Shown one piece after another: positions 6,387-24,610 of a stretch of DNA of 64,000 nucleotides. Each line of letters opens with the position of its first letter. Positions within the stretch are counted from its first letter, which is position 1. The DNA is from a bacterium (GTDB lineage Bacteria; Patescibacteriota; Minisyncoccia; Phycocordibacterales; UBA1550), in NCBI GenBank assembly GCA_030649835.1, contig JAUSES010000060.1, positions 6,411-70,410 on the forward strand, read 5' to 3'. The position numbers were made by a program, and so were the translations under genes. Below the pieces are notes generated by a model. That model saw nothing but the letters and a program-made list of their open reading frames with translations. It searched no databases and was not told the DNA's origin.

Positions 6387-8129
6387 GTTAGGACGAGAGA
6401 GCTCGAAAGGGCTCTTTTGTCGTTTAAGGGCAACGCTATTTCTAGGTTCGAGCGCATCAATAAGTGCTTTTTGCTCTCTCATCTCATTTTCTATCAGTAA
6501 ATATGGATGAAGCTTATCAATAGTGAGTATTTTGTCCTTCAAAATTAGGTTCGAGCCAATCGTAGAAAATATCTCTCTTTTCTTTCGAAGATCCGGTTTA
6601 TTAAATTGATCTCTTGCGAAAGTGCAGAAATTAAACACGCGCTCGGCAATTTCAAGATCACCGTCGAGCTTCTCTTTGGTTCCTCCCATTTGTTTTTCTA
6701 TTGCTGTCCTTTGAGCAATAATCTCTTTTTTCTGCTCTTTGAATTCCTCAGGCGTGTATATTTCGTATTTTGAATTCAGTGGTGAGGAAAATTCTCTACT
6801 TATATTCACGAGCCGTGTCTGACAATCATCGTAAGAGGACTGCAAGGACATGCGAACCGCTTTTTCTTCCCCGCCAGAGTTCTTTTGTTTGTCTTGCAAA
6901 TATTCAAGCGCAAGCTCAAGATATTCTCGATCAATCGTAATATCCCCAAGAATCTTGTCGAACTGTGATTCAAGGTCTTCGAGCTTAATGTATTTTTGAG
7001 AACAGTTTTTATTCTTTTTCTTTGTGCAATGATAATACACATAGTTCAAAACCTTCGGGCTCTCCATGTCTGAAATATCAATCGCACATTTAGGGCACGC
7101 GGTACGATTCACATTAGAAAATTTATACTTGCATGCTGAGCAAATTATCTGATTCTTTTCTTCGGCGGTAATAGTAGAATCACACTCACCGCAACGCATA
7201 AGCCCCGTGAAAGCAAACTCTCGCGTTTGTGGTTGAGGCTTTCCATTTTTCCCAAGAAGAACTTGCGCTCTTTTATATTCTTTTTCTGTAATCATCGCCG
7301 GGTGATTCCCTTTAACCATCTTTACTTCACCCGTATCCGGGTCCGTCCATGGATAATAGCCATAGTAGAAAGTATCCTTAAAAATATTATACATATGGCT
7401 CATTGTCGGCGGATTACCTCCAATTTTTCTATGTTTTAAGGTTGTTAGACCCCATTCGGTAATTGCTATCTCGCGTATTTTTGAAACAGAATAAGTGCCC
7501 GTGAGGAATAGGTCCCACATTTTACGAACGAGCTCAAAACGCTCCGGATCTAGTGCAATAGTTTTATTTCCTTTTTCTGTACCTACATTCAAGTAACCTA
7601 TCGGGCCACCTGAGGGTCTCCATCCACGCATAGCTTTGCTATTTAATCCACGCTTCACATTCTTAGACAAGCGCATCACATAGTCAGTAGCACGCCCTCC
7701 TTCGATACTCATGAGCAATCCAGCATCTTCAGGATAGTAAGAGCGCCCGGGGGTCTTTATGACCTTAATGACTCCCTTCTGAAGCATCCACTGCAACCGT
7801 CCGTTGTCTATGGGGTTTCGAGAAAGACGGTCAATATCCCAACATAAAAGAGCGTTCGCTTCTCCTTTTTCAATTCTGTTTAACACATCATTGAAAATCG
7901 GTCGCCCTGGATCCTTCGCACTTTTTTCTTCAGTGAACGGGTCTCTCGCCAAGCTCAACTGCTCACGCTCTGCAACCTGCTTAAGCGCATTAGTTTGATC
8001 GCCAATAGAAGCAACTTGACGCTGAGAATCCTCAGAGCTCTTGCGACAGTATGCGAAGTACTTTAGCTTTTCATTTTTGTGCATAAAATAATCTACTTGT
8101 ACTATCCATTGTATCATCTTCGTAGCCAT
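6372..8129 (-). CDS. Large serine recombinase (resolvase domain, recombinase domain and zinc ribbon; phage-type integrase). The likely true start is an internal Met near 8084.
   Basis: 'YFAYCRKSSEDSQRQ' is the catalytic Ser motif of serine recombinases. A Cys cluster 'CGECD...CSAC..C' matches a zinc-ribbon insertion domain. The 3' end overlaps tRNA-Asn by 15 nt. Confidence 0.85.
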   Translation of the reverse strand: MATKMIQWIVQVDYFMHKNEKLKYFAYCRKSSEDSQRQVASIGDQTNALKQVAEREQLSLARDPFTEEKSAKDPGRPIFNDVLNRIEKGEANALLCWDIDRLSRNPIDNGRLQWMLQKGVIKVIKTPGRSYYPEDAGLLMSIEGGRATDYVMRLSKNVKRGLNSKAMRGWRPSGGPIGYLNVGTEKGNKTIALDPERFELVRKMWDLFLTGTYSVSKIREIAITEWGLTTLKHRKIGGNPPTMSHMYNIFKDTFYYGYYPWTDPDTGEVKMVKGNHPAMITEKEYKRAQVLLGKNGKPQPQTREFAFTGLMRCGECDSTITAEEKNQIICSACKYKFSNVNRTACPKCAIDISDMESPKVLNYVYYHCTKKKNKNCSQKYIKLEDLESQFDKILGDITIDREYLELALEYLQDKQKNSGGEEKAVRMSLQSSYDDCQTRLVNISREFSSPLNSKYEIYTPEEFKEQKKEIIAQRTAIEKQMGGTKEKLDGDLEIAERVFNFCTFARDQFNKPDLRKKREIFSTIGSNLILKDKILTIDKLHPYLLIENEMREQKALIDALEPRNSVALKRQKSPFELSRPNWLRG

Positions 8130-8364
8130 AAAGCATTGGTCTCAAATTTTGAGTTTCGCACTTTCTTACCAATCTTTTTACACTCATTAATTCCCTGAAT
8201 CTTTCTTTTCCAAATTCACCATGTTGCGCTTTTAACAACTGTTTAACAGATTTTTCACCTTCTTCACCCAAATATAATATTCTACATATTGCACATTCTA
8301 TTATTCCACTTTCATTAACTTTAGGATCATGAGTATGTTTGTCCCCTTCGCAATTTTTGACCAT
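8071..8364 (-). CDS. Hypothetical protein on the island.
   Basis: 97-aa ORF immediately upstream of the recombinase. I recognise no domain. Confidence 0.3.
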   Translation of the reverse strand: MVKNCEGDKHTHDPKVNESGIIECAICRILYLGEEGEKSVKQLLKAQHGEFGKERFRELMSVKRLVRKCETQNLRPMLYGYEDDTMDSTSRLFYAQK

Positions 8365-8542
8365 ATAAAGGTCAATGTCTTCGATTGAATTAATTGCCTT
8401 GATTATATTATTTTCATATGATTCGTACCTATTTTCTTGGTAATTTTCTTAATTAGTAATATACACTTGCCGAGTTACCGCCTTATAGCCAAGAAGACAC
8501 AAAGCTTACTCAGCAAAACGGCAACACATTTATTAACTGCTA

Positions 8543-8935
8543 CTAAAATGGTTCATCTTCATTTATCACTAAGGATTCCTGTGGCTCTTTGGGCATAAAG
8601 CAGAAGTTTTCTTTCCCATGTTTCGCTGTATCAATTTTCCCTTCATTAACTAGTTCCCTGAGAGCGACTTGAACATTCTTTGACCCAGCTACTTTCTTTA
8701 GTATTTCAGTCATTTCTCTCTTGGTTTTTCCGCCATCAGGAAGAATCTCAAGTATTCTCTCTTTTGCTTCCTCTTTTTTGTTTTCTTGGTCCTCAATTGC
8801 TCCACCATAACTAAGAATCGTTTGAACCCCATCGGACCCTTCCTGGTCTTTTATAATCGCCTTGAAGGGGTCTATTTCCTTCGTAAGGCGATTCTTTCGC
8901 TGGTATATGTCTATCTTCTTCTCCTCCTGGCTCAC
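8543..8935 (-). CDS. Hypothetical protein with a probable winged-helix. It may be the C-terminal part of the RepA-like protein after a frameshift.
   Basis: 'TKREMTEILKKVAGSKNVQVALRELVNEGKI' looks like a wHTH. It overlaps the upstream AAA_25 ORF by 125 nt in another frame. Confidence 0.4.
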   Translation of the reverse strand: MSQEEKKIDIYQRKNRLTKEIDPFKAIIKDQEGSDGVQTILSYGGAIEDQENKKEEAKERILEILPDGGKTKREMTEILKKVAGSKNVQVALRELVNEGKIDTAKHGKENFCFMPKEPQESLVINEDEPF

Positions 8936-9647
8936 TCTTCAGCATAAGCAATATTTCCACTGAGGCGGTTTTATCAGTTGAGCCAAACAAAAATTCCTTC
9001 TTTGGAACCTTGCCCTCGAAATTGCTTGGCTTGCGGAAGTGGTCCAAGAATACAACAGCGACACCTTTATCTTTGAGGACTTTGAGGCGGTTGAAGAAAG
9101 TTCTAATTTCATCTGCTTTTTCCTCCTTAATTCCACCCGACACTGCCCTAAAAGTATCTAGAAAAACAACTTTTATTTCGTAATACTCAATAACATTTAG
9201 AAGCCACTGCACCCCTTCGTTCGTATTGAGATTTAATTCTGTATCACTGTAAACTAAAATCTTTTTATTGCTCTCGTCAAAGCCTAGCTGTCTTCCTCTG
9301 CGCTGTGCCTCACTCTGAGACATTTCCATGTCAACATACAGAACATTGGACGCTTCGGTTTTGAACTCCTCGCGTCCAAGAAAATCAATTCCAAGGGCAA
9401 TACATCTAGCCATATCCATCGCAAGCCAGGTTTTCTTTTCTCCTGTAACAGAGGCTAGGATGACAAAACCTTCGCAAGGGATTAGGCCCTGAACCAACCA
9501 CCTTCTCTCTGGGAATTTTTTATTTCCTAGAGTTGTCCAGCTCATCGGCTCAAAGAACGGCTTCTCAATCTCTCTATCAATCTCCCTCATTTCTGAGCTT
9601 TCATTCCTTTCCTCCGCAAACTCCTTAAATGTTTTCTCTTCGTTCAT
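8811..9647 (-). CDS. RecA-like ATPase of the AAA_25 / RepA-like family, a probable mobile-element replication or mobilisation protein.
   Basis: 'GFVILASVTGEKKTWLAMDMARCIALG' is a P-loop of the RepA/AAA_25 type. 'VVFLDTFR' and 'VVFLDHFRK' are Walker B-like strands. Confidence 0.7.
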   Translation of the reverse strand: MNEEKTFKEFAEERNESSEMREIDREIEKPFFEPMSWTTLGNKKFPERRWLVQGLIPCEGFVILASVTGEKKTWLAMDMARCIALGIDFLGREEFKTEASNVLYVDMEMSQSEAQRRGRQLGFDESNKKILVYSDTELNLNTNEGVQWLLNVIEYYEIKVVFLDTFRAVSGGIKEEKADEIRTFFNRLKVLKDKGVAVVFLDHFRKPSNFEGKVPKKEFLFGSTDKTASVEILLMLKSEPGGEEDRHIPAKESPYEGNRPLQGDYKRPGRVRWGSNDS

Positions 9648-9870
9648 AACTTTTAGGCAATGTTATTTTATTAATATCAAGACTGCTTGTCACCGCCCCA
9701 ATAAGGCAAACAAGATTTTCGAAATACTCAAAAGCTTGTGCATCAGAGATGACCGTTTTGTTCTTAGCTTCGTAAAGCTCCTTGAATTTTTTGAGATAAG
9801 TATTTTTATCAACCATAAAATAAAACCCACTATTGAGGACCTGACTTCGCCTAGAAAGTCGGGACCTCAA
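9625..9870 (-). CDS. Hypothetical small protein.
   Basis: 81-aa ORF that heads the minus-strand island operon. Confidence 0.3.
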   Translation of the reverse strand: MRSRLSRRSQVLNSGFYFMVDKNTYLKKFKELYEAKNKTVISDAQAFEYFENLVCLIGAVTSSLDINKITLPKSYERRENI

Positions 9871-9892
9871 TAGTGGGTTCCTCTAGGCGAGC
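9835..9892 (-). terminator. Imperfect 22-bp hairpin followed by a U-tract (minus sense), a probable terminator after ORF 9981..10733.
   Basis: aacccactattgaggacctgac...gtcgggacctcaatagtgggtt is an inverted repeat. It is followed on the minus strand by 'tttattttat'. Confidence 0.5.
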
Positions 9893-9980
9893 GGATATAA
9901 AATATCCTGTGTCTAGCATAAAGAAACCCGTGTTTTTTCAACACGGGTCATGGATGGGTTTATTGTGGGTTACAGATGGG

Positions 9981-10733
9981 TTATTCTACAATTATCCTGA
10001 AACCAACTTTTTCAATATTGTGAAATATATCGGTGTTAACAGCACAGCCTTCAGGTAATATCTGCAAGTCTTCTTTAATTGTTTTAATTATTTGTCCTAT
10101 ATCAGAATATTCTGTTTTATTCAGCGGGAAGCCGAGCGCGTTGCAAAGGTCTTTATAGCTAGCTTGCTTTTCATTGGCATTCAATAATGTTTTCAACACA
10201 TTAAATTTTTGTTGATCTGCTTTAAAATTTACTTTTACTTTTCCAAGAGTTGTATCTCCAGTAATTGTATTGAAGGTAAGTTTATTTTTTCTACCAAGTG
10301 TAATTATACTTGGGTTGACGATTGTGGTTTTAGGTAGTTTCTTATTGAATACGTCGTCACCAGCCTCTTTCAAGAGGTTTAGGTGCTTGCTTGTTTCTGT
10401 GCGAATATTTTTTAGCAGGGTCTGAGATTCCTCACTTTGAATATTGCTGTATTCAATTCCTCCCTTTAAATTAGGAACGCTGTCTGCTTCGTAAAACTTA
10501 TAAAATTCGATATTATCCCTTTTTGCCATAGTGAGGAAATCTTTTATATCTGACTTCCAAATTTGATATCTAGAAAAAACTTCATCAAGTATATTTTTCT
10601 CTGCATATATAGCATCTCCTTCTTGGGCTTGGCGAGTAATATTTATACCCTCCAATATCAAGTCAGAAAATACTCTTTTGAGTTTACTAGGCGCCATGAT
10701 TGTAAATCCTACTCTTTTTTGACATAATGGCAA
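9981..10733 (-). CDS. Hypothetical protein on the island.
   Basis: Clean 250-aa ORF. I recognise no domain. Confidence 0.5.
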   Translation of the reverse strand: MPLCQKRVGFTIMAPSKLKRVFSDLILEGINITRQAQEGDAIYAEKNILDEVFSRYQIWKSDIKDFLTMAKRDNIEFYKFYEADSVPNLKGGIEYSNIQSEESQTLLKNIRTETSKHLNLLKEAGDDVFNKKLPKTTIVNPSIITLGRKNKLTFNTITGDTTLGKVKVNFKADQQKFNVLKTLLNANEKQASYKDLCNALGFPLNKTEYSDIGQIIKTIKEDLQILPEGCAVNTDIFHNIEKVGFRIIVE

Positions 10734-10939
10734 TACAACTGAATAGCAGTCGGCCTAACCCTTAGGAGTTTAAATGCTTAAGGTATGGTTGCGCAAATCC
10801 CATGGAAGGTACTGAACCCCGCGTTCAGCGACTCTTCCATGGGTCATATCGGGAAACTGGTATGTGGACGCAAGTCCTAGCTGGCGCGGGGTTCTGTGTT
10901 TATACCCCACGCTAGCTATATTATTGGCTAGCTATTTTT

Positions 10940-11206
10940 ATGAAAATTAACTCATCTTTATTAATATCAGGAATAACATTAATTATAGGTTTAACATTTA
11001 GTAAAACCGATCTTTTTTTACCTATTTCAGTATTAATTGCAAGTATCATTGGCCTCATTACTAGACAATGGGTTACATCAGACAGACTTGGAAGGGCTAC
11101 TAGGTTGAGCATCTTACTTAAATTCTTTTTATCTCTTATTGGTTTTTATGCAATGATAGGTCAACTCGTATGTATTTGGCTATTAGTAAGGTGGTTTATT
11201 CTATAA
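10940..11206 (+). CDS. Small membrane protein (3 TM helices).
   Basis: Hydrophobic 88-aa ORF. It is the first in a plus-strand run of small ORFs. Confidence 0.4.
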   Translation: MKINSSLLISGITLIIGLTFSKTDLFLPISVLIASIIGLITRQWVTSDRLGRATRLSILLKFFLSLIGFYAMIGQLVCIWLLVRWFIL

Positions 11207-11514
11207 AACATGAAAATATGTCCCAAATAATTACATATAGACACGACAGAGAATATGGATACTGTCATATAAAACTCGACTCTGGAGAAAGAATTCTGTT
11301 ATCAGAGGCGAGTGACTATATAAAAATCTTCAAATTACTTTTTGGTATCATTCCAATAAAAACAATTTGGAAATGGCATAGAACAAACGATCCAAAAGAA
11401 ACCGTACTTAAAATTATGGACAATCATCAAGATACTAGTTTCTTTGATTCATTTGTAAAAGAAATACAAAAATATCGCTCAACCGATGAGATTAAAAATA
11501 AATTCGGTAAATAA
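11170..11514 (+). CDS. Hypothetical protein. The probable start is the Met at 11218.
   Basis: Soluble ORF of 98-114 aa. I recognise no domain. Confidence 0.4.
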   Translation: MYLAISKVVYSIKHENMSQIITYRHDREYGYCHIKLDSGERILLSEASDYIKIFKLLFGIIPIKTIWKWHRTNDPKETVLKIMDNHQDTSFFDSFVKEIQKYRSTDEIKNKFGK

Positions 11515-11523
11515 AATAAATTT

Positions 11524-11835
11524 ATGGACAAAAATTATCAGAAATATTTATCGATAACAGCGGGAATAATGCTCCTCTTGGCTATCCCAGCAATCTGGCC
11601 TTATGGATATTTTCAGATTCTAAGGTGGATTGTTGCTGGAGTGGCCGTGTATAACGCATATTTCGCATACGAACTAAAGAAAAATGAATGGGTGCTTATT
11701 ATGATTGCCGTAGCAATACTATTTAACCCGATAGCTCCAATTTTTCTCCAAAAAGAAACTTGGGTAATTCTAGACCTGGTTGCCTCTGTTTTAATGTTTG
11801 TCTCAATTATAAAATTAAAAACTAAAAAATCATGA
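11524..11835 (+). CDS. Small membrane protein (3 TM helices).
   Basis: Hydrophobic 103-aa ORF. Its end overlaps the next ORF by 4 nt (ATGA). Confidence 0.5.
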   Translation: MDKNYQKYLSITAGIMLLLAIPAIWPYGYFQILRWIVAGVAVYNAYFAYELKKNEWVLIMIAVAILFNPIAPIFLQKETWVILDLVASVLMFVSIIKLKTKKS

Positions 11836-12365
11836 TAGAAAAAATTAAAAACATAGGGTGGACTGGGGCTGGCTTGCTCTTTATTCTATTGGTATTTATT
11901 CTAATAGGCTTTTTGGTGGTGGGAGGAGTTGGTTTTATTGAGAATCATCAAAACCTGATAGAATCAGTAAATAATGTAACTGCGGGTATTTTCGTATTAT
12001 TACTTCTTTTTTCTGTAATACCAAAATTACGAATTTTCACTGGAACTGGGATTGTATTTTTAACATACATCTGGATATTTTTGCTATGGTTAACTTGCTT
12101 AGTTATAACTTACGAATTCTGGGGCCTTATAGGAATCTTTATCGGTGTAATAATGTTTGGTGTGGGTTTATTTATTACCGCCCCTCTTGCTTTACTTTTT
12201 TCAGGCCAAGGGTTTGGCGCACTTCTGTTGCTTCTCTCTATTGGGCTTACTTACCTAATAAGAAATTTGGGGATCTGGATTGTCAGCAAGTATCCAGAGG
12301 CAGGTGTCTCTACTGAGATAAACACAAGCGACATAAATGAAGTAAATGATAAATTTGATAAATAA
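11832..12365 (+). CDS. Membrane protein (4-5 TM helices).
   Basis: 177 aa, very hydrophobic, with an acidic C-terminal tail. Confidence 0.5.
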   Translation: MIEKIKNIGWTGAGLLFILLVFILIGFLVVGGVGFIENHQNLIESVNNVTAGIFVLLLLFSVIPKLRIFTGTGIVFLTYIWIFLLWLTCLVITYEFWGLIGIFIGVIMFGVGLFITAPLALLFSGQGFGALLLLLSIGLTYLIRNLGIWIVSKYPEAGVSTEINTSDINEVNDKFDK

Positions 12366-12389
12366 ATTTTTTATAAAAACATTATTAAT

Positions 12390-12761
12390 ATGAGAATTTG
12401 TATCAAATGCAAAAAAAGAGAAGGTTCTTGGTGGGACCATTTGTGTCAGTATTGTCGCAAGATACCAGTATCTAAACCAGAAGCTCTTGCCTATGAAAAA
12501 TTAAATGAATCTAAAGATATTTTGAGTCAAGATAGGATTGAATATACCGTCAATCTAGAAAAAGCAACTAGTAGTTATTCCTCGAAGTTTGTTAATTTAA
12601 GTAAGGAACTTATTGAGAAGCTAGTAGGATTTTTGTTTCTTGTATTGTTTATGTTTTTAATTTATTTTGTAGCTAGTTGGTTTAAATTTGATACAAATAA
12701 TAATGCTGAAAATTACGAGCCATGCAAAACTTCTGGACACCAACTTTGGCAAGATTGCTGA
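12390..12761 (+). CDS. Zinc-ribbon protein with a C-terminal TM helix.
   Basis: The N-terminus 'CIKCKKREGSWWDHLCQYC' is a CxxC...CxxC motif. A hydrophobic segment follows at 'FLFLVLFMFLIYFVASWF'. Confidence 0.5.
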   Translation: MRICIKCKKREGSWWDHLCQYCRKIPVSKPEALAYEKLNESKDILSQDRIEYTVNLEKATSSYSSKFVNLSKELIEKLVGFLFLVLFMFLIYFVASWFKFDTNNNAENYEPCKTSGHQLWQDC

Positions 12762-12787
12762 TGTAAAAATGAGATATAATTACAAAT

Positions 12788-13069
12788 ATGAATGAAAAAG
12801 AAATATTAAAACTTAATGACGAAGTGCTAAAGATGAACAGTCTTGACTTCGCTAACTTTTTAGAAAAGAAAACGAAAACATACCAAGATGTTGAGCAGAC
12901 AGTATCTCAGGGTGGGGATGTTGCGTTTAAAACTATTCTTGCATTAAAGTATAAGGTATTTATTTTGGAAAACTCCAAGAAGAAACTGATTGTATATTCC
13001 TTCTTACTAACTATAATCATAGTACCTTTAATTATCCAAAGTCTTTCTTTTGTACTTCCAGAAATGTAA
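12788..13069 (+). CDS. Small protein with a C-terminal TM helix.
   Basis: 93-aa ORF. Confidence 0.4.
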   Translation: MNEKEILKLNDEVLKMNSLDFANFLEKKTKTYQDVEQTVSQGGDVAFKTILALKYKVFILENSKKKLIVYSFLLTIIIVPLIIQSLSFVLPEM

Positions 13070-13079
13070 AAATAAATGA

Positions 13080-13277
13080 TTGAGGTATCTTAAAGAAAAT
13101 CAAAATACTATGAAAAAATTAATAGGTCTTATCTCAACAAAAGGCAAGACCTCTGAGCAAGCAAGCAAGGAGGTTACGGACGCTTTCCACAAGTTCAACA
13201 AGATACAAAAGCAGGTTGAAATTGAAATGCGAGAGGAGGAGCTGTCACTCACACCCCAGCACGAGTGTCAGAAATGA
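13080..13277 (+). CDS. Small charged/coiled-coil protein.
   Basis: 65-aa ORF. Confidence 0.3.
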   Translation: MRYLKENQNTMKKLIGLISTKGKTSEQASKEVTDAFHKFNKIQKQVEIEMREEELSLTPQHECQK

Positions 13278-13301
13278 AAATAACAGCGGTAATATAAAAA
13301 T

Positions 13302-14063
13302 ATGCTTGGCGCAATTATTGGTGATTTTGTGGGGTCATACTATGAGTTTAACGCGGTCAAAACAAAAGACTTCGACCTTTTCCCCGTGGGCTCGAAATTT
13401 ACCGACGATACTATTCTTACCCTCGCTACAGCACACGCTATTCTAAATAAAGAAGATTACGGTAAATCTTACAAAAACTTTTTTTGGCAATACCCACTTA
13501 AAAACTACGGCGAGCGATTTTACGCATGGGGCAAAAGAGACGACTCTGAGCCATACAATAGTTTTGGTAACGGGTCTGCGATGAGGGTAGCTCCTGTCGG
13601 GTGGGCTTTCAATATCATTGAGCAGGTTCTTGAGGAGGCAAAGAAGAGCGCTGAAGTGACCCATAATCACCCAGAGGGGATAAAAGGCGCTCAAGCCGTA
13701 GCAAGCGCAATATTCCTCGCAAGAACTGGGGCAAGCAAAAAAACAATCAAGGAATACATAGAATTAAATTTTGAGTACGACCTAGATCGTTCCGTGGATG
13801 AGATACGGGAAACGGCCGTCTTTAACGAGACGTGTATGATAAGCGTTCCCGAGGCGATTATTTGTTTCCTTGATTCTGAATCATTTGAAGATGCCCTACG
13901 AAATGCAGTTTCTCTTGGGGCAGATGCTGACACCCAGGCATGCATCGCCGGAGCAATAGCAGAAGCATTTTACAAAGAGATACCGGATTTTATACGAGAG
14001 GAGGTATTGAAGCGCTTACCTAAGAAATTCCATGGGATGATTGATGAAATACTCACTGCATAA
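13302..14063 (+). CDS. ADP-ribosylglycohydrolase family protein (DraG/ARH-like).
   Basis: N-terminal 'GAIIGDFVGSYYEF', mid 'GNGSAMRVAPVG' and C-terminal 'GADADTQACIAGAIAEAF' match the binuclear-Mg ARH signature. Confidence 0.85.
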   Translation: MLGAIIGDFVGSYYEFNAVKTKDFDLFPVGSKFTDDTILTLATAHAILNKEDYGKSYKNFFWQYPLKNYGERFYAWGKRDDSEPYNSFGNGSAMRVAPVGWAFNIIEQVLEEAKKSAEVTHNHPEGIKGAQAVASAIFLARTGASKKTIKEYIELNFEYDLDRSVDEIRETAVFNETCMISVPEAIICFLDSESFEDALRNAVSLGADADTQACIAGAIAEAFYKEIPDFIREEVLKRLPKKFHGMIDEILTA

Positions 14064-14167
14064 GAAACGCTTCCAAATATCTCCCGTTTCCATGTGCTGA
14101 TTCTGCGCGATCAACCAGAATTCTGTAATTTTTTATTTCCATTTTTTAAATATAAATATGATGTACC

Positions 14168-16561
14168 CTACAGGCGAACTTGCTCTTGTACGTCTAGTTG
14201 AATCAGTTCTTGGAATTCATTCAATGTAATTACTTCCTCTCTAAAATTATCTGAATCAGATAAATCTCTTACCGTTAAAATAAAGGCGTAGGGTTGATTT
14301 TCTAAGTTTTCTTTTCCAAGAATTTTACTTTCATAAGATTGTGTTGCAGACAACTGTAAAAGTACCTCTAGCACAGTAGATGGTACTTTTTTCTTTATTT
14401 TTTTAAAATGAATCACATTGTGATTTGGGTTCCTGTAATGGTCCCATGTTGGAGTCTGGTTTAGAGACAGTGCTTTATTTTTTTCTTCAACCTCACCATT
14501 TTCATCAAGGATTGGGACCAAGAACCGAACTGCTGGTTCAACACTCATCATCTTATATTCTTTTGGGTAATTTTTATCAACGGGAGGGTTATAAGCAAGA
14601 GTGAATATAAACTCTACCTTTTTACCCAAGATACTTTCTGGGAGCTGTATTTGTAATTTGTGTTTCCTCTCAACGTAATTAATCTTATCTGCATACATTA
14701 ATGTTAGTTCATTTTCATTATCCTTTAAAGCAAGCTTGTGGTCGGGGACTCCAAAACCATATGCTCGTTTTATATGGTCATCCTCGATTTTTACTTGTGG
14801 AGCTTTTGCGGTTGAATGAATCAAAAGTGCCTTAACGAGATTAAGTTTATTGTTCTCTAAATCAACATAATCTGATGCTTTCGCTTTCTTTATAAAATCT
14901 AACAAAAACGCACATTATCTAGTGATTAAAGGCGCACTTAGGCTAGTGCCAATGTCTTTGTTGAGGCCATCCTTATTTATGCTCTCAACGCCAAAAACCT
15001 GATTTGAGGATATCATGTGAGCATTTCCATAACCAAAGCTTGGGTCTTTTTTTACATTACCTCCATTAGCAACCAATTCTGGTTTCTTAATATCTTTAGC
15101 GACACTGGAAGTACGCGTAAAAGGGGCTGGGAACCCTTGCTCAACATTTACACAACTAGCGTCAGCCTTACCCGAAATTGAGCCAACTGAAATTACATTA
15201 AGAGCATCACTTGGTGATGCAATAAGAGATTTTTCTTGTTTAAAAATAGTATTGTAATTTTCACTAGCGTAAACTTGATGGTTACCGACAGAACAAACAA
15301 ATATCACATCGTACTCCCTAGCTATATTATCCAAGAATTCGGTCAATTCACTCACGTCGTCTTTGTCTATCGGTTCATTTTCATTAATAGAGAGATTATA
15401 TATTGAAATATCTTCATACCTATTTACAACCTCAGAAATTGCACCCTTTAGTTCATCAAGGGAGACGCATTTTGAATCACTACCATCCAAATACAATACT
15501 TGTATGTCTAGAATATTACATGTTGGAGCAATAGAACCACCCCCTGTTAATTGCATAAAGAAGTTGTCACCAAACAAAATTCGGCTGGCCACAATAGTAC
15601 CGTGGTTCTTGTCCTCGACCTGATGTCGAGACAAATAATTATGGTGATGAGCCCTAAGCTGTTGGAGTATTGGATTATATATACCACTATCAATGAGACC
15701 CACTCTTTCTGCTGTTAGTGGAGCAAGGAGATTCAGTGCCCCAAGATTAATCTCTGGGATACACCTCTGTGAACTCAAAATTGGTTGCTCTCTTATTTTG
15801 CCGATAAAATTAAAATCTGCATCACTTAAAATACCAATAATTTCATTTGCTGTAAGGGTCGCCAAGAATGATATGTTACTAAAAAATAAGTTTATATTTC
15901 TCTTTTTCAATTTTCCACGAAAAACAAGTTGATCGTTCAAAGAATCAAAGAGTGTGTCGTATTTATCTTTGCCAATATTTGGGTAAATCTCAATAATGCA
16001 ATCAATTGTTTGATTTAAAATATTGCCATGAATAAGTGAGTAGATATAATTACTTACCCGGCCCTCAATGATTGTATTACGGTCTGTGACTGCCGACATG
16101 GCATACAATTCACGCAACAGATTCTTGTCTTTTTTTCTTGGTAAATCCTCCCCTGTGAGGGCAGCATCAAATGAGCCGCTATTGCTTATACTAACCAAAC
16201 GGTCAAAATCCTCTATTTTCCCACTAACGATAAATGTTTTGTCGTTTTTAGAACCAACAATTTCAAGCCCCGTCTCATTCCACACATCAGCAGGACTGTT
16301 AGATTTTGAGTTTGCCAGCTCATCTAATTCGACTTCGACATACAGTAATTTCCCGGCAGTTTTTGCTTCCGATTTTATTTTTTTAACAGTTGTATCAATC
16401 TGCCTTACGCGCTTTGAAAACACTCTGGCGTAATGTTCGCGGGTATCATCAGTAATTTTCTTTTCCCAAAACGACTTCCAAAAATCAGAACCTCCTCCAG
16501 GCTTTTTACCTTTATTTATCTTCTTTTTGGGTACAACAATTGAAAAGTTCATATATTTCAT
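14168..16561 (-). pseudogene. ietS: Subtilase (peptidase S8), IetS-like. It is split into ORFs 14915..16561 and 14168..14905 by a single in-frame TAA at 14915..14917.
   Basis: The Asp motif 'VGLIDSGI', the His motif 'NHGTIVASR' and the Ser motif 'GTSLSAPLITR*' are present. The downstream ORF is in the same frame and continues with a subtilase-like C-terminus ('LVKALLIHS', 'AYGFGVPD'). Confidence 0.6.
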
Positions 16562-17661
16562 TTTATATTGTCACGAAGCGTAGTGTACGCAATACCAGAA
16601 ACTTCAGATATGTCAATTAAATTGAAACTGCTATCTTTTAACACTTGCGCAATTTCATAAAGATTCTTTTTGTTAAGCCTCTGTTTTGATGTTAATTGGT
16701 GATTAAAAGAAATAATATGTTTTAAGCAAAAAATATTATCTAAGCTTATACCCTCTATTACCGATGCTCTTTTTATGTTTTGGCATATATCATTAATTAA
16801 AGAACCATTTAAACCAACAGTGACTCTTGCCATTAAATTATAGTCTAATGATTTATTTTTATTAAAATCACTTAAAAACAACTCAAACAATAGAGCCCTC
16901 GATTCCTCTTCTGGGGTATTAATTTCTAACCTTAGCCCGAATCGTCTCCATAGTGCCTTGTCCAACAACTCATCATGATTTGTTGCTCCAATTAGAATTG
17001 AAGTCACTGGGAATAAGTCAATATTTTGAAGTAACACAGTAACTACTCTCTTTAATTCCCCCAACTCCCTTGCATCATCTCGATGTTTAGCTACTGTATC
17101 AATTTCGTCAAAAAAGATGACTACTCGCTCCCTTTTTGCAATTTCAAAAACCTCGCTAATGTTTTTCCCTGTTTTACCTAAATACGATGAGACTAGTTCA
17201 TCTAATTTGACAATAATAAGTGGGAGGTTCAATTTATTCGCAAGAGCATAAGCTAATCTTGTTTTCCCTGTACCAGGTGGTCCATAGAAAAGAATTTTGT
17301 TTATAGGGGAAATATTATTTTTAAGTAACTTATCAAAAGCTTCCCAATGCTTTATAAACTCAATTATGGTTGTCCTTGTATTTGGATTAAGGACAACAGA
17401 ATCTAATTCGATGTTTGAGTAAATTTTTTCAAAAAGAGTATCGTTATTGTTTAGATTTATATTCCTAGAAGTTAACGACTGCCCAGATAAGGAATGCCCC
17501 CTAGACACATCTTTAATCAGATTTGACAATCTTTTGGCAACTAATATTTTTCCGTTAGCTCTTTGTTTTTTTATCTCCTTTTCTAGGACAGAAACAACCT
17601 CCTCGTTTTTACCTGAGGAAAAAGCCTTTACGATATCTTCTACGATATTTATAGTTGCCAT
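16558..17661 (-). CDS. ietA: AAA+ ATPase, IetA-like partner of the subtilase.
   Basis: Walker A 'GPPGTGKT', Walker B 'VIFFDEIDTV' and the classic AAA sensor region are present. Its stop overlaps the start of the S8 gene (ATGA). Confidence 0.8.
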   Translation of the reverse strand: MATINIVEDIVKAFSSGKNEEVVSVLEKEIKKQRANGKILVAKRLSNLIKDVSRGHSLSGQSLTSRNINLNNNDTLFEKIYSNIELDSVVLNPNTRTTIIEFIKHWEAFDKLLKNNISPINKILFYGPPGTGKTRLAYALANKLNLPLIIVKLDELVSSYLGKTGKNISEVFEIAKRERVVIFFDEIDTVAKHRDDARELGELKRVVTVLLQNIDLFPVTSILIGATNHDELLDKALWRRFGLRLEINTPEEESRALLFELFLSDFNKNKSLDYNLMARVTVGLNGSLINDICQNIKRASVIEGISLDNIFCLKHIISFNHQLTSKQRLNKKNLYEIAQVLKDSSFNLIDISEVSGIAYTTLRDNIK

Positions 17662-18041
17662 AAAATCCGTAATTTAAAAAAACCAACTAAATTAATACTC
17701 TTATTGTATCATATTACGAAAATTAATGTAAACCATATTTTCGTAATTATATTTGTACCCCCCTGATGAGCACTCCAAAGAATAGCTAAAAAATATAAAT
17801 GAGTTTTTGAGAATTAATTTTCCCCAAGAGCCTGGGGGTATGGGTATCCCCCCAGGCTCAAAATGGCTCTATGTTCACACAAACTACCCAACGCCGTATT
17901 TTCCATCACACGGGGGCCTACGTCGAGGGGTATGCACACCGCCCCTGCCCTATTGCACTGAGAGATTGGGAACATAAAAATCATCAGATCGAGTGGCTAT
18001 CCAAGTTCTAATAGCCTCGACTGTTCGGAGCAAATTAAAAC

Positions 18042-18066
18042 CCCTCGAAAGAGGGTGTTTTTATTT
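18042..18066 (+). terminator. Short GC hairpin plus T-tract (cccctc-gaaa-gagggtg-ttttt).
   Basis: Stem-loop followed by 'tgtttttatttg' inside the long noncoding tract. Confidence 0.4.
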
Positions 18067-18089
18067 GCTCCGCGGAGTAAAGCGAAGCT

Positions 18090-18460
18090 TTACGGTAGGG
18101 ATCGAACAGCGGAGCGATATTTTGTTAGCAAACAAAATCGCGAGCTGGTGCCCAGACAGAACTTTTTGACGAAAAAGTTTTAGTCGAGGGAGATATCCCT
18201 ATCCGCCCGGTAAGATCGAAGACCTTGAGTATATTTATGATGATGTACTCATCTGAAGAAATACAAAGGTGTACCGTTCCTGTAAGGAAAGATACCCCTA
18301 CCCTTAGGGATCGAACCGAAGACCCACCATTTTGGGAATGAGAGTATTCTCGAAGACCTACAAAATGGATGGTCTCGATCGCATGGAAGGGCGATCATGC
18401 ATACAATCAGCACAGCGACCTGGTAAATCGTGACCACTCCCTACTAGCAGAGTCAGTAAG
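18090..18460. repeat. Array of at least three related structured elements (about 110-150 nt each). Each is framed by 'gtagggatcgaa' ... 'ccctac(ccgc)' and contains paired hairpins.
   Basis: Similar cores occur at 18097, 18209 and 18303. 3' motifs 'gata[ct]ccctaccc' occur at about 18200, 18290 and 18447. Internal stems include 'aactttttg/caaaaagtt' and 'gacccaccattttg/caaaatggatggtc'. Confidence 0.45.
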
Positions 18461-18531
18461 GGCACAATAAAAATACCTATAGATACTTTAAAAGACTAGA
18501 ACTTGTTTTAAAAAAATGGTAATTTGAATTT

Positions 18532-19704
18532 ATGAGAAACATTATTTTAGGAATTACGGCCATTGTCATATTTATCGTAGGTTCTCTTGCGATTAGCCAT
18601 CCTTTTTTAAAAGATTCTGAAAATTATCTAGCTGTTATAGAAAAAAATGTTCAAGAGCAAATCACCAATGACGAGAGTCAAGGCGTGTATGAAAACAAAA
18701 CCGTAAAAAAGTGTGAGAACCCTGTGTTCACTTCGTATTTTATTGATCCGCAATATGTACAAAAAGTTGGACAAGTTGGTGTCGTCCATGGTTCCGGCTT
18801 ATACATAGTAGAAAGGTCATATATAAGTGTAAAGGAAAAATTTGCCGCGCAGAAAGTACCAGTATACGCTCCTTCTGACATTGAGCTCGTTGCAGGTAGT
18901 CATTATCGTGATCCTGCTGCTCCAAGTAATGCCCTACCCGATTATGCCCTGTGGTTTGACGCGGGATGTGATGTAGAAGTAAATCTAGCACACCTCAAAG
19001 AAGTTGCTCAACCGATTGCTTTACAATTACCAGATGTAAAAACAGACAGCAGGAATACACGACTAAAGCCTTTGCAATTTAAAGCTGGGGATCTCATAGG
19101 ATATTTTATTTATAGTCATGGGGATGTTGCAGGATTTGATTTTATCGTCAGAGACAAAAAGGTGTTAAATAAATTTATCAATCAAGAAAGATATTCCGAC
19201 CATAGAGCATCAAATCTTATCAATGGCGTTTGTCCTTATGATTATTATGAACCTAACAAGAAAAAAACATATTATAATTTGCTAGGCGGAGCCGGAGGAA
19301 CACTCTTCAAAACTAAAGACTGCGGAAAATCATCAAGAGATGTTGCTGGCACCATTTCGGGGATGTGGTTTTTGAGTCAAGAACCGCAGAATAACATCTA
19401 CGAAAGCTACAAGGAAGGACTGTATGGCAGTACTTTGTCTATAGTAGGAGACGAGGAAAGGATCACTATAGGTAACTTGGGAGAAAGTCGTATGTCTTGG
19501 ATATATAACAACAACCCCACCTACAAACTACCCGAACAGGTAAAGAGCGAGCACTGCTATAAGTTTGATGGGTTCACTCCAGGAGATAATAGGGGCTGGG
19601 TTTACTTTAAGTTCGTTTCAGATACACAGCTTGATGTCTTTTTTTCTCAAACAGGAACTTGCCCATACTCACTTCCGCCAAACGCCAAACGATATTATAA
19701 ATAG
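18532..19704 (+). CDS. Secreted or membrane-anchored hypothetical protein.
   Basis: It has an N-terminal TM/signal 'ILGITAIVIFIVGSLAI'. The ORF is 390 aa with no recognised domain. Confidence 0.6.
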   Translation: MRNIILGITAIVIFIVGSLAISHPFLKDSENYLAVIEKNVQEQITNDESQGVYENKTVKKCENPVFTSYFIDPQYVQKVGQVGVVHGSGLYIVERSYISVKEKFAAQKVPVYAPSDIELVAGSHYRDPAAPSNALPDYALWFDAGCDVEVNLAHLKEVAQPIALQLPDVKTDSRNTRLKPLQFKAGDLIGYFIYSHGDVAGFDFIVRDKKVLNKFINQERYSDHRASNLINGVCPYDYYEPNKKKTYYNLLGGAGGTLFKTKDCGKSSRDVAGTISGMWFLSQEPQNNIYESYKEGLYGSTLSIVGDEERITIGNLGESRMSWIYNNNPTYKLPEQVKSEHCYKFDGFTPGDNRGWVYFKFVSDTQLDVFFSQTGTCPYSLPPNAKRYYK

Positions 19705-19746
19705 ACCCTTTTAATGTAGTAAACAATGAGTGGAGCATAAAAGTAA

Positions 19747-19776
19747 GACCGTCCCCCTCGTGGACGGTTTTTACTT
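19747..19776 (+). terminator. Intrinsic terminator (gaccgtcc...ggacggt + TTTTT).
   Basis: Hairpin plus T-tract about 45 nt after the stop of ORF 18532..19704. Confidence 0.6.
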
Positions 19777-19786
19777 TTGTCATGCT

Positions 19787-19912
19787 TCCGCGCGTGTAGG
19801 GATCGAAGGGATTTTCGGTTTACGCTCGTAGCAACGAGTGCCGAAAATCCCCGTTTTCAATTTCAGTGAGTGGCGACGAACTGAAATTGAAAAAGATACC
19901 CCTACCCGCAAA
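19787..19912. repeat. Fourth copy of the structured element family: an outer 'gtaggg/ccctac' stem enclosing two hairpins. It is a possible small RNA or tRNA-derived repeat.
   Basis: tgtagggatcgaa | gggattttcgg..ccgaaaatccc | ttcaatttcag..ctgaaattgaa | gatacccctacccgc. It is homologous in layout to 18097..18205. Confidence 0.4.
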
Positions 19913-19938
19913 ACCTACAATATTTTCCAAAGAAAAAA

Positions 19939-19962
19939 GGTTGCCACGAGTGGCAACCTTTT
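19939..19962. terminator. Bidirectional hairpin terminator (ggttgccac-gag-tggcaacc), A/T-flanked.
   Basis: Perfect 9-bp stem, with 'aaaaaa' on the 5' side and 'tttt' on the 3' side. It is 20 nt beyond the stop of the minus-strand ORF 19983..20846. Confidence 0.6.
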
Positions 19963-19982
19963 AAATTAATTCAAATACCTAT

Positions 19983-20846
19983 TTACTTAATTGCCTCCAA
20001 ACAAAATGTTCCTTGTGGAGTACAGCGTTTTGGACCATCGAAGAATTTGAAGGCTACGTCAGGCACAGGATATTTGGTCTCTGTTTCATGAACGATATTG
20101 CCATCAAACATCCTGCCACACACCTCATGCGCTTTTTCGAGCGATCCTTGAATATCTTTGCAGGCATCATATTCAACTTTAAGCGCCGCTAATTTATCGC
20201 TAAAGTCTTTTATCCGCGCCACGAGCCTATTATATTTTTCGAAGTATTTGAGCCCCGCTTGATGTATTGCGTTTGCTTCACGATCGCTTTTTTCACCAAT
20301 CTGATTGAGGGTGTCAATGTTTTTAATCAACCGATCTCGGTTTGTATCGATTTCTCCCTTCCACGAATTTACCTTTTCGACAAGCGGATCTAAACGAGCT
20401 TTCTCGATCTGGCACCAATTGTATCTATTCTGATCAACAGTGCCATGGCAAACTCCATTATAAGAATCCGCTTGACCGTTTACGTTTTTTGCAAAGTCAT
20501 TTTGACTTATAATATTATCCTCATGCTTTGTATTCTCCTGCTCAAATGTAGCCCACGCATTGAAAAGAAGGTCTGCTGTCGCAAGCTGGTGTGCTTGTTT
20601 TCCTTCTAAAACTACGCCTTCTTTGTTTGCGATTTTTAAATCCCGAACAGTGCTACGAATAGAGCCAATATATAAGCTGGCTTTTGCATCCCGCGCGTGG
20701 CCTGTGTTTTCATCTGCTGGCACACCACTTGCCCCGCCCTCTGCGTGCGCAAATGCCGTCAGTGCCATCATTAAAACCAAAGTGATATACGTTTTCATTT
20801 TGAACTCCTTATGTTGAATATCTATTAAACCTACAGGCGAAATCAT
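19983..20846 (-). CDS. Secreted hypothetical protein (signal peptide). The probable start is the Met at 20798.
   Basis: 'MKTYITLVLMMALTAFAHA' is a Sec signal. The rest is Cys-containing and coiled-coil-like. Confidence 0.6.
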   Translation of the reverse strand: MISPVGLIDIQHKEFKMKTYITLVLMMALTAFAHAEGGASGVPADENTGHARDAKASLYIGSIRSTVRDLKIANKEGVVLEGKQAHQLATADLLFNAWATFEQENTKHEDNIISQNDFAKNVNGQADSYNGVCHGTVDQNRYNWCQIEKARLDPLVEKVNSWKGEIDTNRDRLIKNIDTLNQIGEKSDREANAIHQAGLKYFEKYNRLVARIKDFSDKLAALKVEYDACKDIQGSLEKAHEVCGRMFDGNIVHETETKYPVPDVAFKFFDGPKRCTPQGTFCLEAIK

Positions 20847-21424: not shown

Positions 21425-21617
21425 GGTAAAATGAATATATGAATCCCGTTAGAGGTCCCCGCCCACTTTCGCCAGAACACAGCAAAAAGTTGTGCTCAAG
21501 TGATGGCGGGTGGGACTCAGTTTTTTAACCTGAGCCTACGGGAGTCTATATAAAAAGTTTATTTATTTACTAGATAATAATCAGCTACGGAAACGCCTAG
21601 CGTTTCCTACCTCTAAC
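21425..21617. repeat. MITE-like element, copy B, inverted relative to copy A. It abuts the start codon of the first M14 peptidase gene.
   Basis: Terminal inverted repeats 'atcccgttagaggt' (21443) and 'acctctaacgggat' (21603). The internal 85 nt are the exact RC of 6040..6127. 'tttcctacctctaacgggATGAAAAA' precedes this gene and also precedes pyk. Confidence 0.6.
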
Positions 21618-21620
21618 GGG

Positions 21621-22517
21621 ATGAAAAAAATAATTATTGCATTGGTTGTTATTGTTCTTATCGGCCTCGGTGTTTGGTTTTTTATGAATAAGAGTGCGGA
21701 GGCTCCGACTCCGGTAGTGACTGCTCCGACAACGACCACGACTGCTACAGTGGTGACAGAGGAGCCTGTTGACACCACAAGGACAGTTCTTGGAACGTCT
21801 GTTGAAAATCGCGACATCACCGCGTACCACTACGGCACCGGCGCAAAAGAAGTTTTGTTTGTTGGAGGAATTCACGGCGGTTACGAATGGAACACTGCGC
21901 TCGTGGCATATGAGCTCATGGACTACCTCACGGCAAATCCTAAGGTTATTCCAAGCAACGTAAGAGTGACTGTCATCCCCGTGCTCAACCCAGACGGTTT
22001 GAAAAAAGTTACAGGAAAAGAAGGGCGTTTTACAAAAGCTGATATCGCTACATCAGAGTCTGTCGTTGTATCTGGTCGCTTTAATGCAAGCGGTGTTGAC
22101 CTCAACCGCAACTTTGATTGTGATTGGCAGACAAAGGCAGTGTGGATGAACAAACCCGTAAGTGGCGGAAGCAAAGTATTTTCAGAACCTGAAAGTATGG
22201 CAATTAAAAACTACATAGAAACTCACAGCCCCGTAGCTACTGTCGTATGGTACAGCTCTGCAGGCGGTGTATTCTCTTCAAACTGTCACAACGGAATCCT
22301 TCCTGAAACAAAAACTCTTACAAATCTTTTTGCAAAAGCATCTGGGTACAAAGCCTACGAGACGTTTGATTTCTATGAGACTACCGGCGACATGGTAAAC
22401 TGGCTTGCAAAAAAGAACGTTCCTGCAATCAGCATTCTTCTCACCACCCACGACGATACGGAGTGGAGCAAAAACCTCGCAGGGATTAAAGCGACACTAA
22501 ACCACTACGCAAAGTAA
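21621..22517 (+). CDS. M14-family zinc carboxypeptidase (gamma-D-Glu-DAP / murein peptide carboxypeptidase-like), membrane-anchored.
   Basis: It has an N-terminal TM helix. 'FVGGIHGGYEWNTA', 'DLNRNFDCDW' and 'SEPES' are M14 zinc-binding and catalytic motifs. Confidence 0.85.
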   Translation: MKKIIIALVVIVLIGLGVWFFMNKSAEAPTPVVTAPTTTTTATVVTEEPVDTTRTVLGTSVENRDITAYHYGTGAKEVLFVGGIHGGYEWNTALVAYELMDYLTANPKVIPSNVRVTVIPVLNPDGLKKVTGKEGRFTKADIATSESVVVSGRFNASGVDLNRNFDCDWQTKAVWMNKPVSGGSKVFSEPESMAIKNYIETHSPVATVVWYSSAGGVFSSNCHNGILPETKTLTNLFAKASGYKAYETFDFYETTGDMVNWLAKKNVPAISILLTTHDDTEWSKNLAGIKATLNHYAK

Positions 22518-24396: not shown

Positions 24397-24476
24397 GCAC
24401 AGAAGTTTTTAAAGAACTTTAATGCTTTAAATTACTTCGTCCGAGACACCACTCTGATTGCCTGCGTCTCTTATAA

Positions 24477-24532
24477 AACTGGGGGTATGCAGTGTGAAAG
24501 ATAATATCTTTCACACTGCATACCCCCAGTTT
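24477..24532. terminator. Long perfect hairpin (about 24-bp arms) plus T-tract, a bidirectional terminator.
   Basis: ctgggggtatgcagtgtgaaagat-aat-atctttcacactgcatacccccag followed by tttt. It lies between convergent ORFs. Confidence 0.65.
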
Positions 24533-24610
24533 TATTAGCCGTCAAACCATACCATGATGGAGCGACACCTTTTGTTGCAGAAAAATTAGATTAATTTTTG
24601 CCTTTTAGAT

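Follow-up and report, generated by a model that had tools for sequence, protein, structure and literature searches.

The window analysed here, a 64,000-nucleotide stretch of DNA from an ultra-small patescibacterium, contains one tRNA-Asn(GTT) gene and, downstream of it on the same strand, an array of folded elements whose ends copy the 3' end of that tRNA gene. We call these elements units and number the four candidates of the window el1 to el4 (Table 1). The upstream neighbour of the tRNA gene is pyruvate kinase, and the 3' portion of the gene reads GTAGG-TTCGATC-CCTAC-CCGCGGA-G-CCA. The segment copied, in both orientations, at the unit termini is the 3' block TTCGATCCCTAC-CCGCGGAG-CCA (6364-6386), and the acceptor stem sequence, TCCGCGGA, is a palindrome. 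An integrated island of ~11.6 kb separates the gene from the array. The only gene-bearing segment of the array is that of a 390-aa open reading frame (ORF) between el3 and el4, which matches no Pfam family and is left without a Pfam-assigned function.

Table 1. Features of the window, with positions counted from its first letter.
Feature	Position	Strand	Basis and details
tRNA-Asn(GTT)	6312-6386	+	ARAGORN, the sole tRNA it finds in the window; Rfam tRNA, 72 bits
Integrated island	6379-18031		core CGGAGC at both ends: attL 6379-6384, attR 18026-18031
Large serine recombinase of the island	6372-8129	minus	Pfam Resolvase, Recombinase, Zn_ribbon_recom
Long hairpin T	18026-18077	+	inverted repeat I2, 19 nt, 89%; terminator-like site 18042-18055 (+)
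Small hairpin hp	18077-18093	+	folds; GTAAAGCGAAGCTTTAC, C-GAA-G triloop, GCGAAGC core
el1, type A unit	18095-18206	+	H1 18107-18147, H2 18151-18190; apical loop T-GACG-A
el2, type B unit	18209-18303	+	alignment A3, R2 model; degenerate left arm (GTAAGATC)
el3, not classifiable as a member	18304-18461	+	local alignments; weak fold
390-aa ORF	18532-19704	+	between el3 and el4, in unit orientation; then terminator 19745-19771
el4, type D unit	19789-19910	+	H1 19808-19851 (conserved GTTT bulge, inner hairpin), H2 19854-19893
LOOT RNA (RF03000)	10752-10878	+	73 bits, gathering score 46; inside the serine-recombinase island

The insertion point of the island is the CGGAGC of the tRNA-Asn acceptor 3' strand. 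A short common core at both ends and a recombinase at one end, the marks of a large-serine-recombinase island, are found at 6379-18031 only; the units are no part of its attachment sites, and the island does not belong to the unit family. Fusing what lies left of attL with what lies right of attR rebuilds the order tRNA, terminator, unit that is present in related loci (L003, L004, L006, L010 and L029). Therefore, el1, el2 and el3 are the old downstream flank of the existing plus-strand tRNA-Asn gene and not debris of the island. The former minus-strand tRNA gene once proposed for this place is not needed: the array is the ancestral flank of the gene that is still there, with the island in between. 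We found no significant structure in the right end of the island (17790-18030).

Every unit folds into a three-way junction of ~90-112 nt, in which a closing stem (P1) carries two hairpins, H1 and H2. P1 pairs GTAGGG-ATC with GAT-nn-CCCTAC around a constant 2-nt bulge; the closing stem is an inverted copy of the tRNA block, from T-loop to 3' end, paired with a direct copy of it. On the 5' side of P1 stands a small covarying hairpin, hp, with the loop C-GAA-G or T-GGG-A, and 5' of it the reverse complement of the tRNA acceptor 3' strand. Hairpins of this class with covarying stems recur in L004, L019, L021, L024 and L025. On the 3' side of P1, the acceptor 3' strand is repeated in direct orientation, together with the discriminator base and (C)CA. 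The left arm is antisense to the T-loop and the 3' strand of the T-stem and stays complementary across the acceptor and on into the trailer; the arms are thus both strands of the tRNA gene's 3' block. The array of the window opens with hairpin T, in which the tRNA's original 3' end with its trailer (CGGAGCAAATTAAAACCCC) is followed by a terminator loop and by the reverse complement, whose end, CTCCGCGGAG, is the acceptor-like 5' strand of el1. The hp of the window sits exactly between the acceptor-like and the T-stem-like helices. In el1, P1 pairs GTAGGGATC with GAT-AT-CCCTAT, and the extended closing stem of el4 pairs CGCGCGTGTAGGGATC with GAT-AC-CCCTACCCGC.

The initial annotation of this DNA had described at least four related elements that start with an exact reverse complement of the tRNA-Asn T-arm and end in a common motif. 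Elements do lie at these places, although the start positions given were off by 1-7 nt. The left end GTAGGGATCGAA is exact at 18095-18106 (el1) and 19796-19807 (el4), but has one mismatch in el3 (TTAGGGATCGAA, 18304-18315) and is degenerate in el2 (GTAAGATCGAAG, 18209-18220). The 11-mer TAGGGATCGAA is the reverse complement of the T-loop/T-stem of tRNA-Asn; it occurs four times in the 64 kb, one occurrence being the tRNA itself, against 0.02 expected from shuffles. The right-hand motif GATAYCCCTAYCC is exact at 18192, 18291 and 19895, and three of the four elements thus have the right end that was described; el3 does not and ends ...CCACTCCCTACTAGCAGAGTCA (18430-18455). The internal hairpins that had been named are present in the sequence, and el1 and el4 fold better than their shuffles (z -4.3 and -8.0 as RNA, -5.4 and -7.9 as DNA).

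Three of the four candidates, el1, el2 and el4, belong to a conserved family, and el3 shares the left terminus alone. The left 20 nt of el3 are the reverse complement of tRNA-Asn from variable loop to T-arm (18/20), and at its right end TCCCTACTAGCAGAGTCAGTAAGG repeats the tRNA 3' end with its trailer in direct orientation, in decayed form (19/24). Its fold is weak (z -2.0 on the plus strand and -1.0 on the minus strand), it is matched by no covariance model, and it has no homologue among 40 loci. No terminator or hp intervenes between el2 and its neighbours el1 and el3.

The type D alignment (A1, 14 sequences including el4) has 98% of its cells paired, with changes on both sides in 25 of 42 pairs; none of 500 column shuffles was as good, and sliding the partners lowered pairing to ~40%. 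Compensatory changes also affect 20 of 37 pairs in the type A alignment (A4) and 14 of 24 in type B. The compensatory covariation that the initial annotation had made a test of its proposal is thus strong in types A, B and D. Unpaired positions are conserved as well: a GTYT bulge in H1 of type D, AGYA in the apical loops of H1, and, in H2, a loop T-GACG-A or T-GTCG-A in types A and D and T-GTA-A in type B. We considered the type B loop CUGUAAG as a mimic of an anticodon loop and ruled this out, since the flanking pair covaries from C:G to A:U and the loop is therefore a closed GUA triloop.

Which strand folds? The plus strand, the sense strand of the tRNA, had the more stable fold in 33 of 41 distinct units, with a mean advantage of 3.1 kcal/mol (p 4e-6). 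In type D, 23 cells hold G.U and 3 hold A.C, and one G.U pair is kept in 10 of the 14 sequences. Both the energies and the excess of G.U over A.C therefore assign the fold to the plus strand. This contradicts the suggestion that the elements are a tRNA 5' end and 3' end on the minus strand, separated by an insertion; the apparent minus-strand 5' end arises because the acceptor sequence is palindromic. The hairpins of the units are nearly all Watson-Crick, with ~3% G.U, and end in loops such as C-GAA-G and T-GTA-A, while neighbouring terminators use GAAA. The GCGAAGC core is a notably stable DNA mini-hairpin. Watson-Crick stems with GAA and GTA triloops hint at DNA, in a way that is suggestive and not decisive.

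How widespread are the units? A two-anchor pattern made from their termini, scanned against one genome per prokaryotic species, found 10 loci, 9 of them in Patescibacteria metagenome-assembled genomes, and a slightly relaxed pattern found 29 metagenome contigs. Both scans demanded exact arms, and lineages with a different tRNA-Asn T-arm lie outside the sample. In all, ~35 further loci were recovered by pattern scans, every one from Patescibacteria once four chance-like matches in GC-rich, unrelated sequence (L007, L034, L037 and L040) are set aside; the genomes are labelled Paceibacterota, Parcubacteria, Nomurabacteria, Taylorbacteria and Saccharibacteria. Apart from the chance-like matches, we count 49 units with 41 distinct sequences. 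These fall into discrete types, namely D (including el4), A (including el1), B (including el2), D/A hybrids with a type D H1 and a type A H2, and a small fourth type (L023, L031), and subtypes are shared between Saccharibacteria and Parcubacteria lineages. In each matching species genome of the collection, a single contig carries the matches.

Covariance models agree with this classification. The type D model (R1) recovered el1, which lay outside its training set, at 46.3 bits (E 2e-9), and a type B model (R2) built without el2 recovered el2 at 58.6 bits (E 2.6e-13); el4 scored 118.5 bits on R1, but as a training sequence. Over the 64-kb window, neither model matched anything beyond el1, el2 and el4. 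No Rfam family falls on the units. Rfam 15 gave no relevant match over 17600-20100 at E up to 10, and at the gathering score it found only tRNA and LOOT in the window and only tRNA and group I introns in 16 related loci (141 kb). ARAGORN calls no unit a tRNA and finds the true tRNA-Asn only. The units are not described in the literature that we searched on tRNA-like RNAs of the Candidate Phyla Radiation (CPR), tRNA-Asn islands of Patescibacteria, CPR integrons and attC sites, and folded tRNA attachment sites. The family is undescribed in the databases and literature searched and restricted to Patescibacteria among the sequences searched. Of the options first put forward, a new structured class thus holds up, with its covariation, its conservation across Patescibacteria and the lack of an Rfam family. 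An exact-protein look-up for strain variants returned two short contigs from sample SRR13727527, identical to the window where compared.

The link to tRNA-Asn is constant. Comparison of related genomes for an intact tRNA gene, proposed at the outset, found one in 14 loci by ARAGORN; it is always a tRNA-Asn(GTT) gene that shares the strand of the units and precedes them, closely in 13 loci and by ~3.3 kb in L018. ARAGORN misses the tRNA-Asn of L003 and L010 because a group I intron inside the anticodon loop interrupts the gene (2363-2639 and 58-300, respectively), a finding that agrees with a 2026 mSystems report on tRNA introns in Patescibacteria (PMC13011429). In up to ten loci, the tRNA is preceded by conserved housekeeping genes (HPF, fmt, def, priA). 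The downstream genes are unrelated and accessory (glyoxalase/PhnB-like, VanY, beta-lactamase, methyltransferase, restriction-modification, STAND NTPase, Replic_Relax), and island junctions fall inside the tRNA 3' block; serine-type junctions, with the boundary just before CGGAGC, are also present in L008, L009, L015 and L020. The locus is an integration hotspot.

The arrays share a recurrent layout. After the CCCTACC of the tRNA comes X, the acceptor 3' strand plus trailer, then a terminator hairpin, the reverse complement of X, hp, P1, the body of the unit and P1', and beyond this last boundary X'. The layout can repeat in tandem, as in two identical 190-bp modules of L003. An intrinsic terminator precedes almost every unit, although some units are consecutive without one (el1-el3 in the window; a type B and a type A unit in L004), and a TTGACA box follows CCCTACC at 12-14 nt in 11 of 13 promoter-followed units. 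This places the units behind a terminator and ahead of the next promoter, and none was found to have a promoter itself. Some inter-unit segments hold genes with their own promoter. The number, order and type of the units vary between genomes, and half-units broken at the T-loop sequence occur. GC skew proved too weak to tell the replication strand.

Several single loci deserve mention. A composite in L036 (11040-11350) has a type B body fused to a type D body at GATCGA, an additional hairpin in its left arm and a 33-nt insertion in its right arm; the 8 kb between the unit at 3114 and this composite hold a LexA-fused Eco57I-like restriction-modification gene, with Replic_Relax upstream. An inverted fragment like the 3' end of another tRNA (GTTACCAGAAATCATTTCGAAC, GATACCAGAGGAGGGGATCGAAC) lies downstream of the last terminator of each array in L011 (4600-4625), L021, L025, L028 and L029 and is cut off right at the T-loop sequence; either a half-unit or a leftover attachment site of a convergent tRNA gene could explain it. 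A common island end (AAAT...GGTACCTGACC) at L009 2108-2150, L010 717-760 and L015 666-720, of which L009 and L010 are labelled Saccharibacteria, joins a unit 3' block truncated after CGCGGA or CGCG and is a second island family, inserting at the units' copies of the tRNA 3' end. Many metagenome contigs start or stop within ~150 nt of a unit (L013, L014, L023, L024, L030, L033, L038 and others), and L033 and L038, from one sample, overlap only in the same type D unit, which suggests that assemblies break at units through repeats or strain-level variation.

What are the units for? Two answers are the most probable: a folded recombination site and a new small RNA. Our tentative preference, held at less than even confidence, is for a recombination or attachment-type site that is folded from a single strand and imitates the attachment site of tRNA-Asn. 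The arms are two copies of the stretch that runs from T-loop position 54 through the 3' end to the trailer, one inverted and interrupted by hp, the other direct and with the 2-nt bulge, and they pair with each other. The plus strand, when single-stranded, thus forms a stem equivalent to the duplex of the tRNA-Asn attachment region, and a conserved two-hairpin junction (type A, B or D) caps it. While the fold and its conservation, the strand, the tie to tRNA-Asn, the layout of the arrays and the hotspot context are observed, it is an inference that DNA and not RNA is the folded molecule, that it recombines, and which enzyme is involved. The function would lie at the DNA level, analogous to integron attC or the CTX-phage attP hairpin, with a recombinase supplied in trans, and modules of terminator plus unit, as well as gene-bearing segments, would be added serially and in one orientation at the 3' end of tRNA-Asn.

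Several observations are consistent with such a folded recombination site. Arms that are the two strands of one block fit a mimic of a duplex DNA target and are hard to derive from a duplicated tRNA, and the segment from T-loop to 3' end is reportedly the one typically used by tRNA-targeting integrases. Integron cassettes and CTX phage integrate as a folded single-stranded circle by one strand exchange. In all six independent informative cases, the 5' acceptor-like strand of a unit is complementary to the preceding 3' block (8-10/10) and not to the following one (5-7/10); by analogy, pairing with the preceding block is the layout that would be predicted for a folded single-stranded circle integrating by single strand exchange. 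The hybrids, the fusion of types B and D at GATCGA and the half-units broken in the T-loop suggest recombination at that sequence. The lack of an own promoter and the position behind terminators also point to an origin and, in our view, a function at the level of DNA. The three covarying subtypes, the fold on one strand, the hotspot context, the variation of unit number, order and type between genomes and the nearly pure Watson-Crick hairpins count in favour as well.

Like integron attC sites, the units are imperfect inverted repeats (attC: 57-141 nt) with conserved ends and a variable terminal structure; a single strand folds, with extrahelical bases, and they form co-oriented arrays beside what would be a fixed primary site, with accessory genes between some of them; the sequence past the crossover would belong to the next cassette. 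The folding of one strand is evident in the plus-strand bias, the 2-nt bulge of the right arm, the hairpin of the left arm and the H1/H2 junction as terminal structure. The units differ from attC in lacking the R''/L''...L'/R' boxes (RYYYAAC...GTTRRRY): their termini read GTAGGGATCGAA ... GAT-nn-CCCTACC, without GTTRRRY ends. The primary site would here be the 3' end of a tRNA gene, and the internal domain comes in three discrete conserved types with conserved loops. Genes lie between units in the window and in L009, L010, L020, L024 and L036, but most modules are empty of genes and carry only a terminator, gene-bearing segments have their own promoters, some genes are reversed and some boundaries are those of serine recombinases. 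Nor is there an IntI/attI pair: no integrase was among the 25 commonest families listed for 150 neighbouring ORFs (130 families matched) or in the individually scanned ORFs that flank units, in loci of at most 14 kb that leave room for a recombinase elsewhere in the genome.

The CTX-phage attP hairpin offers a second parallel, as two inverted copies of the target, ~90 nt apart, pair in single-stranded DNA and mimic the duplex, and a host recombinase (XerCD for CTX) acts in trans to give oriented integration and tandem arrays. Unlike in CTX, the target here would be tRNA-Asn and not dif, and the units have no linked phage or rolling-circle replication genes and are absent from the viral collections searched. 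Tyrosine integrases that use the T-loop sublocation of tRNA genes, as in P4-like islands, also let direct copies pile up downstream and leave a variable downstream region. However, their sites are double-stranded direct repeats without an inverted partner, a conserved folded insert or a strand bias, and their elements carry the integrase gene.

That conventional double-stranded integration produced the units as by-products is in our view unlikely as a full explanation. They would then be fragments from serial integration, inversion and deletion, with palindromes in the target (TCGA and GATC in the T-loop, CCGCGG in the acceptor) permitting wrong-orientation events, and would be functionless or merely extra landing sites. 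Islands demonstrably enter these blocks, as attL and attR of the window and the junctions of L008, L009, L015 and L020 attest; half-units and isolated tRNA 3' fragments exist (L011 4356; GTTACCAG...TTCGAAC motifs), and el3, in which similarity is confined to the tRNA block, resembles such a scar. Integrase-driven inversions between tRNA fragments are documented in Thermococcales (PMC5495485). Scars, however, would not keep 98% pairing through 25 compensatory pairs, a strand bias, their loops, or three discrete subtypes shared by Saccharibacteria and Parcubacteria, and the interiors of el1, el2 and el4 covary. The initial annotation's attachment-site remnants therefore hold in part: the arms do copy the tRNA block at which integration typically occurs, in a locus that is a hotspot for it, but as conserved folds the units are no decaying scars. 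Mobility of the units themselves, as miniature inverted-repeat transposable elements (MITEs) whose tRNA-like terminal inverted repeats are recognised by a transposase, is very improbable. Imperfect terminal inverted repeats of 12-22 nt, a size of ~100-190 nt, hybrids and tandem copies would suit a MITE. Yet model matches in the 64-kb window are limited to el1, el2 and el4 at one locus, and each species genome has one contig with matches. This single locus per genome, without dispersed copies, contradicts a MITE, as it does the idea of repeats like short interspersed nuclear elements; moreover, the orientation to tRNA-Asn is constant, interiors differ between subtypes, and there are no target-site duplications and no nearby transposase gene.

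A more serious contender, possible though doubtful, is that the units are structured plus-strand non-coding RNAs of tRNA-like topology, made by read-through transcription from tRNA-Asn or upstream genes. The acceptor-like stem and P1 would form a minihelix ending ...CCGCGGAG(C)CA, with the two-hairpin domain in place of the T-loop, and RNase P and RNase Z could free a stable RNA acting as a mimic, decoy or scaffold of tRNA-Asn. The position of the units downstream of tRNA-Asn, in its orientation, in all 14 loci with a detected tRNA suits such an RNA, as do the preference for the plus strand with its conserved G.U, the strong covariation with loops and bulges kept across distant CPR lineages, and the runs of units without a terminator between them. 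An acceptor-like stem on a T-stem-like helix with a tRNA-like 3' end is also what the tRNA domain of tmRNA, the YrlA Y RNAs, viral tRNA-like structures and mascRNA have. These differ from the units, which lack a T-loop (its antisense stands in place), a D-loop/T-loop elbow, a promoter, an Rfam match and a linked Rsr or SmpB context. A terminator before almost every unit, a 5' arm that is T-loop antisense, and unit types and numbers that vary between genomes all speak against a small RNA, as do the low share of G.U, the absence of GNRA or UNCG loops and the failure of the tRNA model and every other Rfam family to match. The acceptor-like stem is, in addition, missing or disrupted in at least 10 otherwise intact units (among them el1, el2, el4, the type A unit of L010, the type B unit of L009, L011a/b, L019 and L023).

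A number of points weigh against the folded recombination site. Each genome has a single locus, and most modules carry a terminator only and no cargo. Several gene-bearing segments are bounded by CGGAGC junctions of serine-recombinase type and not by the unit core, and the insertion of cargo is therefore explicable without units; serine-recombinase islands alone can explain much of the gene turnover. No linked recombinase or conserved protein partner emerged from Pfam searches of ~180 neighbouring ORFs or from clustering of the first downstream ORFs, and no copy of a unit was found in viral contigs (two pattern scans) or in plasmids and phages (BLAST). The conservation of the arms is partly built into the sample, because the scan patterns needed exact arms. 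An extended terminator hairpin, combined with insertions that later entered the following block, could account for the complementarity to the preceding one. The GTYT bulge and the AGYA and GACG loops, conserved across CPR classes, fit a functional RNA better than they fit the variable portion of attC, and tolerance of G.T cannot separate single-stranded DNA from RNA. Finally, hp sits at the acceptor/T-stem junction, where the D and anticodon arms would emerge, and the equivalents of U1-A72 and G73 are retained.

The window holds further features. The stop codon of the large serine recombinase falls within the tRNA-Asn T-stem, and the cargo of its island comprises an AAA_25 ATPase, an ADP-ribosylglycohydrolase, and a subtilase and AAA ATPase pair that may be a defence system. 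The LOOT RNA within the island has no counterpart at the gathering score in any of the 16 related loci. Two divergent genes, for pyruvate kinase (4469-5902, minus) and for an M14 carboxypeptidase (21621-22517, plus), have in their leaders a perfect 86-nt inverted repeat (6048-6133 and 21439-21524) and a 31-nt repeat of 94% identity (5890-5920 and 21603-21633), and the motif CCCGTTAGAGGT and its complement recur up to both start codons. The repeats could be a shared cis-regulatory leader; the leaders with the 86-nt repeat gave no Rfam match, and a public short-read contig stops inside the 86-nt/31-nt leader repeat. The two 86-nt copies also flank a 15.3-kb segment with the tRNA-Asn gene, the island and the array, and could mediate its inversion. 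Short tandem or inverted repeats of the GGGGAACGAG type are intergenic around genes resembling those of type IV pili and type II secretion systems (46063-46126, 55321-55384, 55946-56026 and 59760-60010), and palindromes of 56-69 nt, perfect or nearly so and with only 0-1 nt as spacer, occur at 758-813, 24470-24538 and 58984-59045.

The Patescibacteria, or CPR, have very small genomes, whose gain and loss of accessory genes is little understood. A structured element that is conserved and easy to recognise now serves as a marker for the variable region behind their tRNA-Asn gene. A broader proposal, which we rate as rather unlikely but worth stating, is that Patescibacteria possess an integron-like platform for gene acquisition on the tRNA-Asn 3' end, with self-mimicking sites, a recombinase encoded elsewhere, and caps A, B and D as modules for specificity or accessory factors. 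If the units are folded recombination sites, they would be a third kind of target-mimicking single-strand attachment site, beside attC and CTX-phage attP, and the first with a link to a tRNA gene. If they are RNAs, they would form a new class of tRNA-derived RNA with a junction in place of the T-loop. Under either reading, the covariance models built here can annotate the elements.

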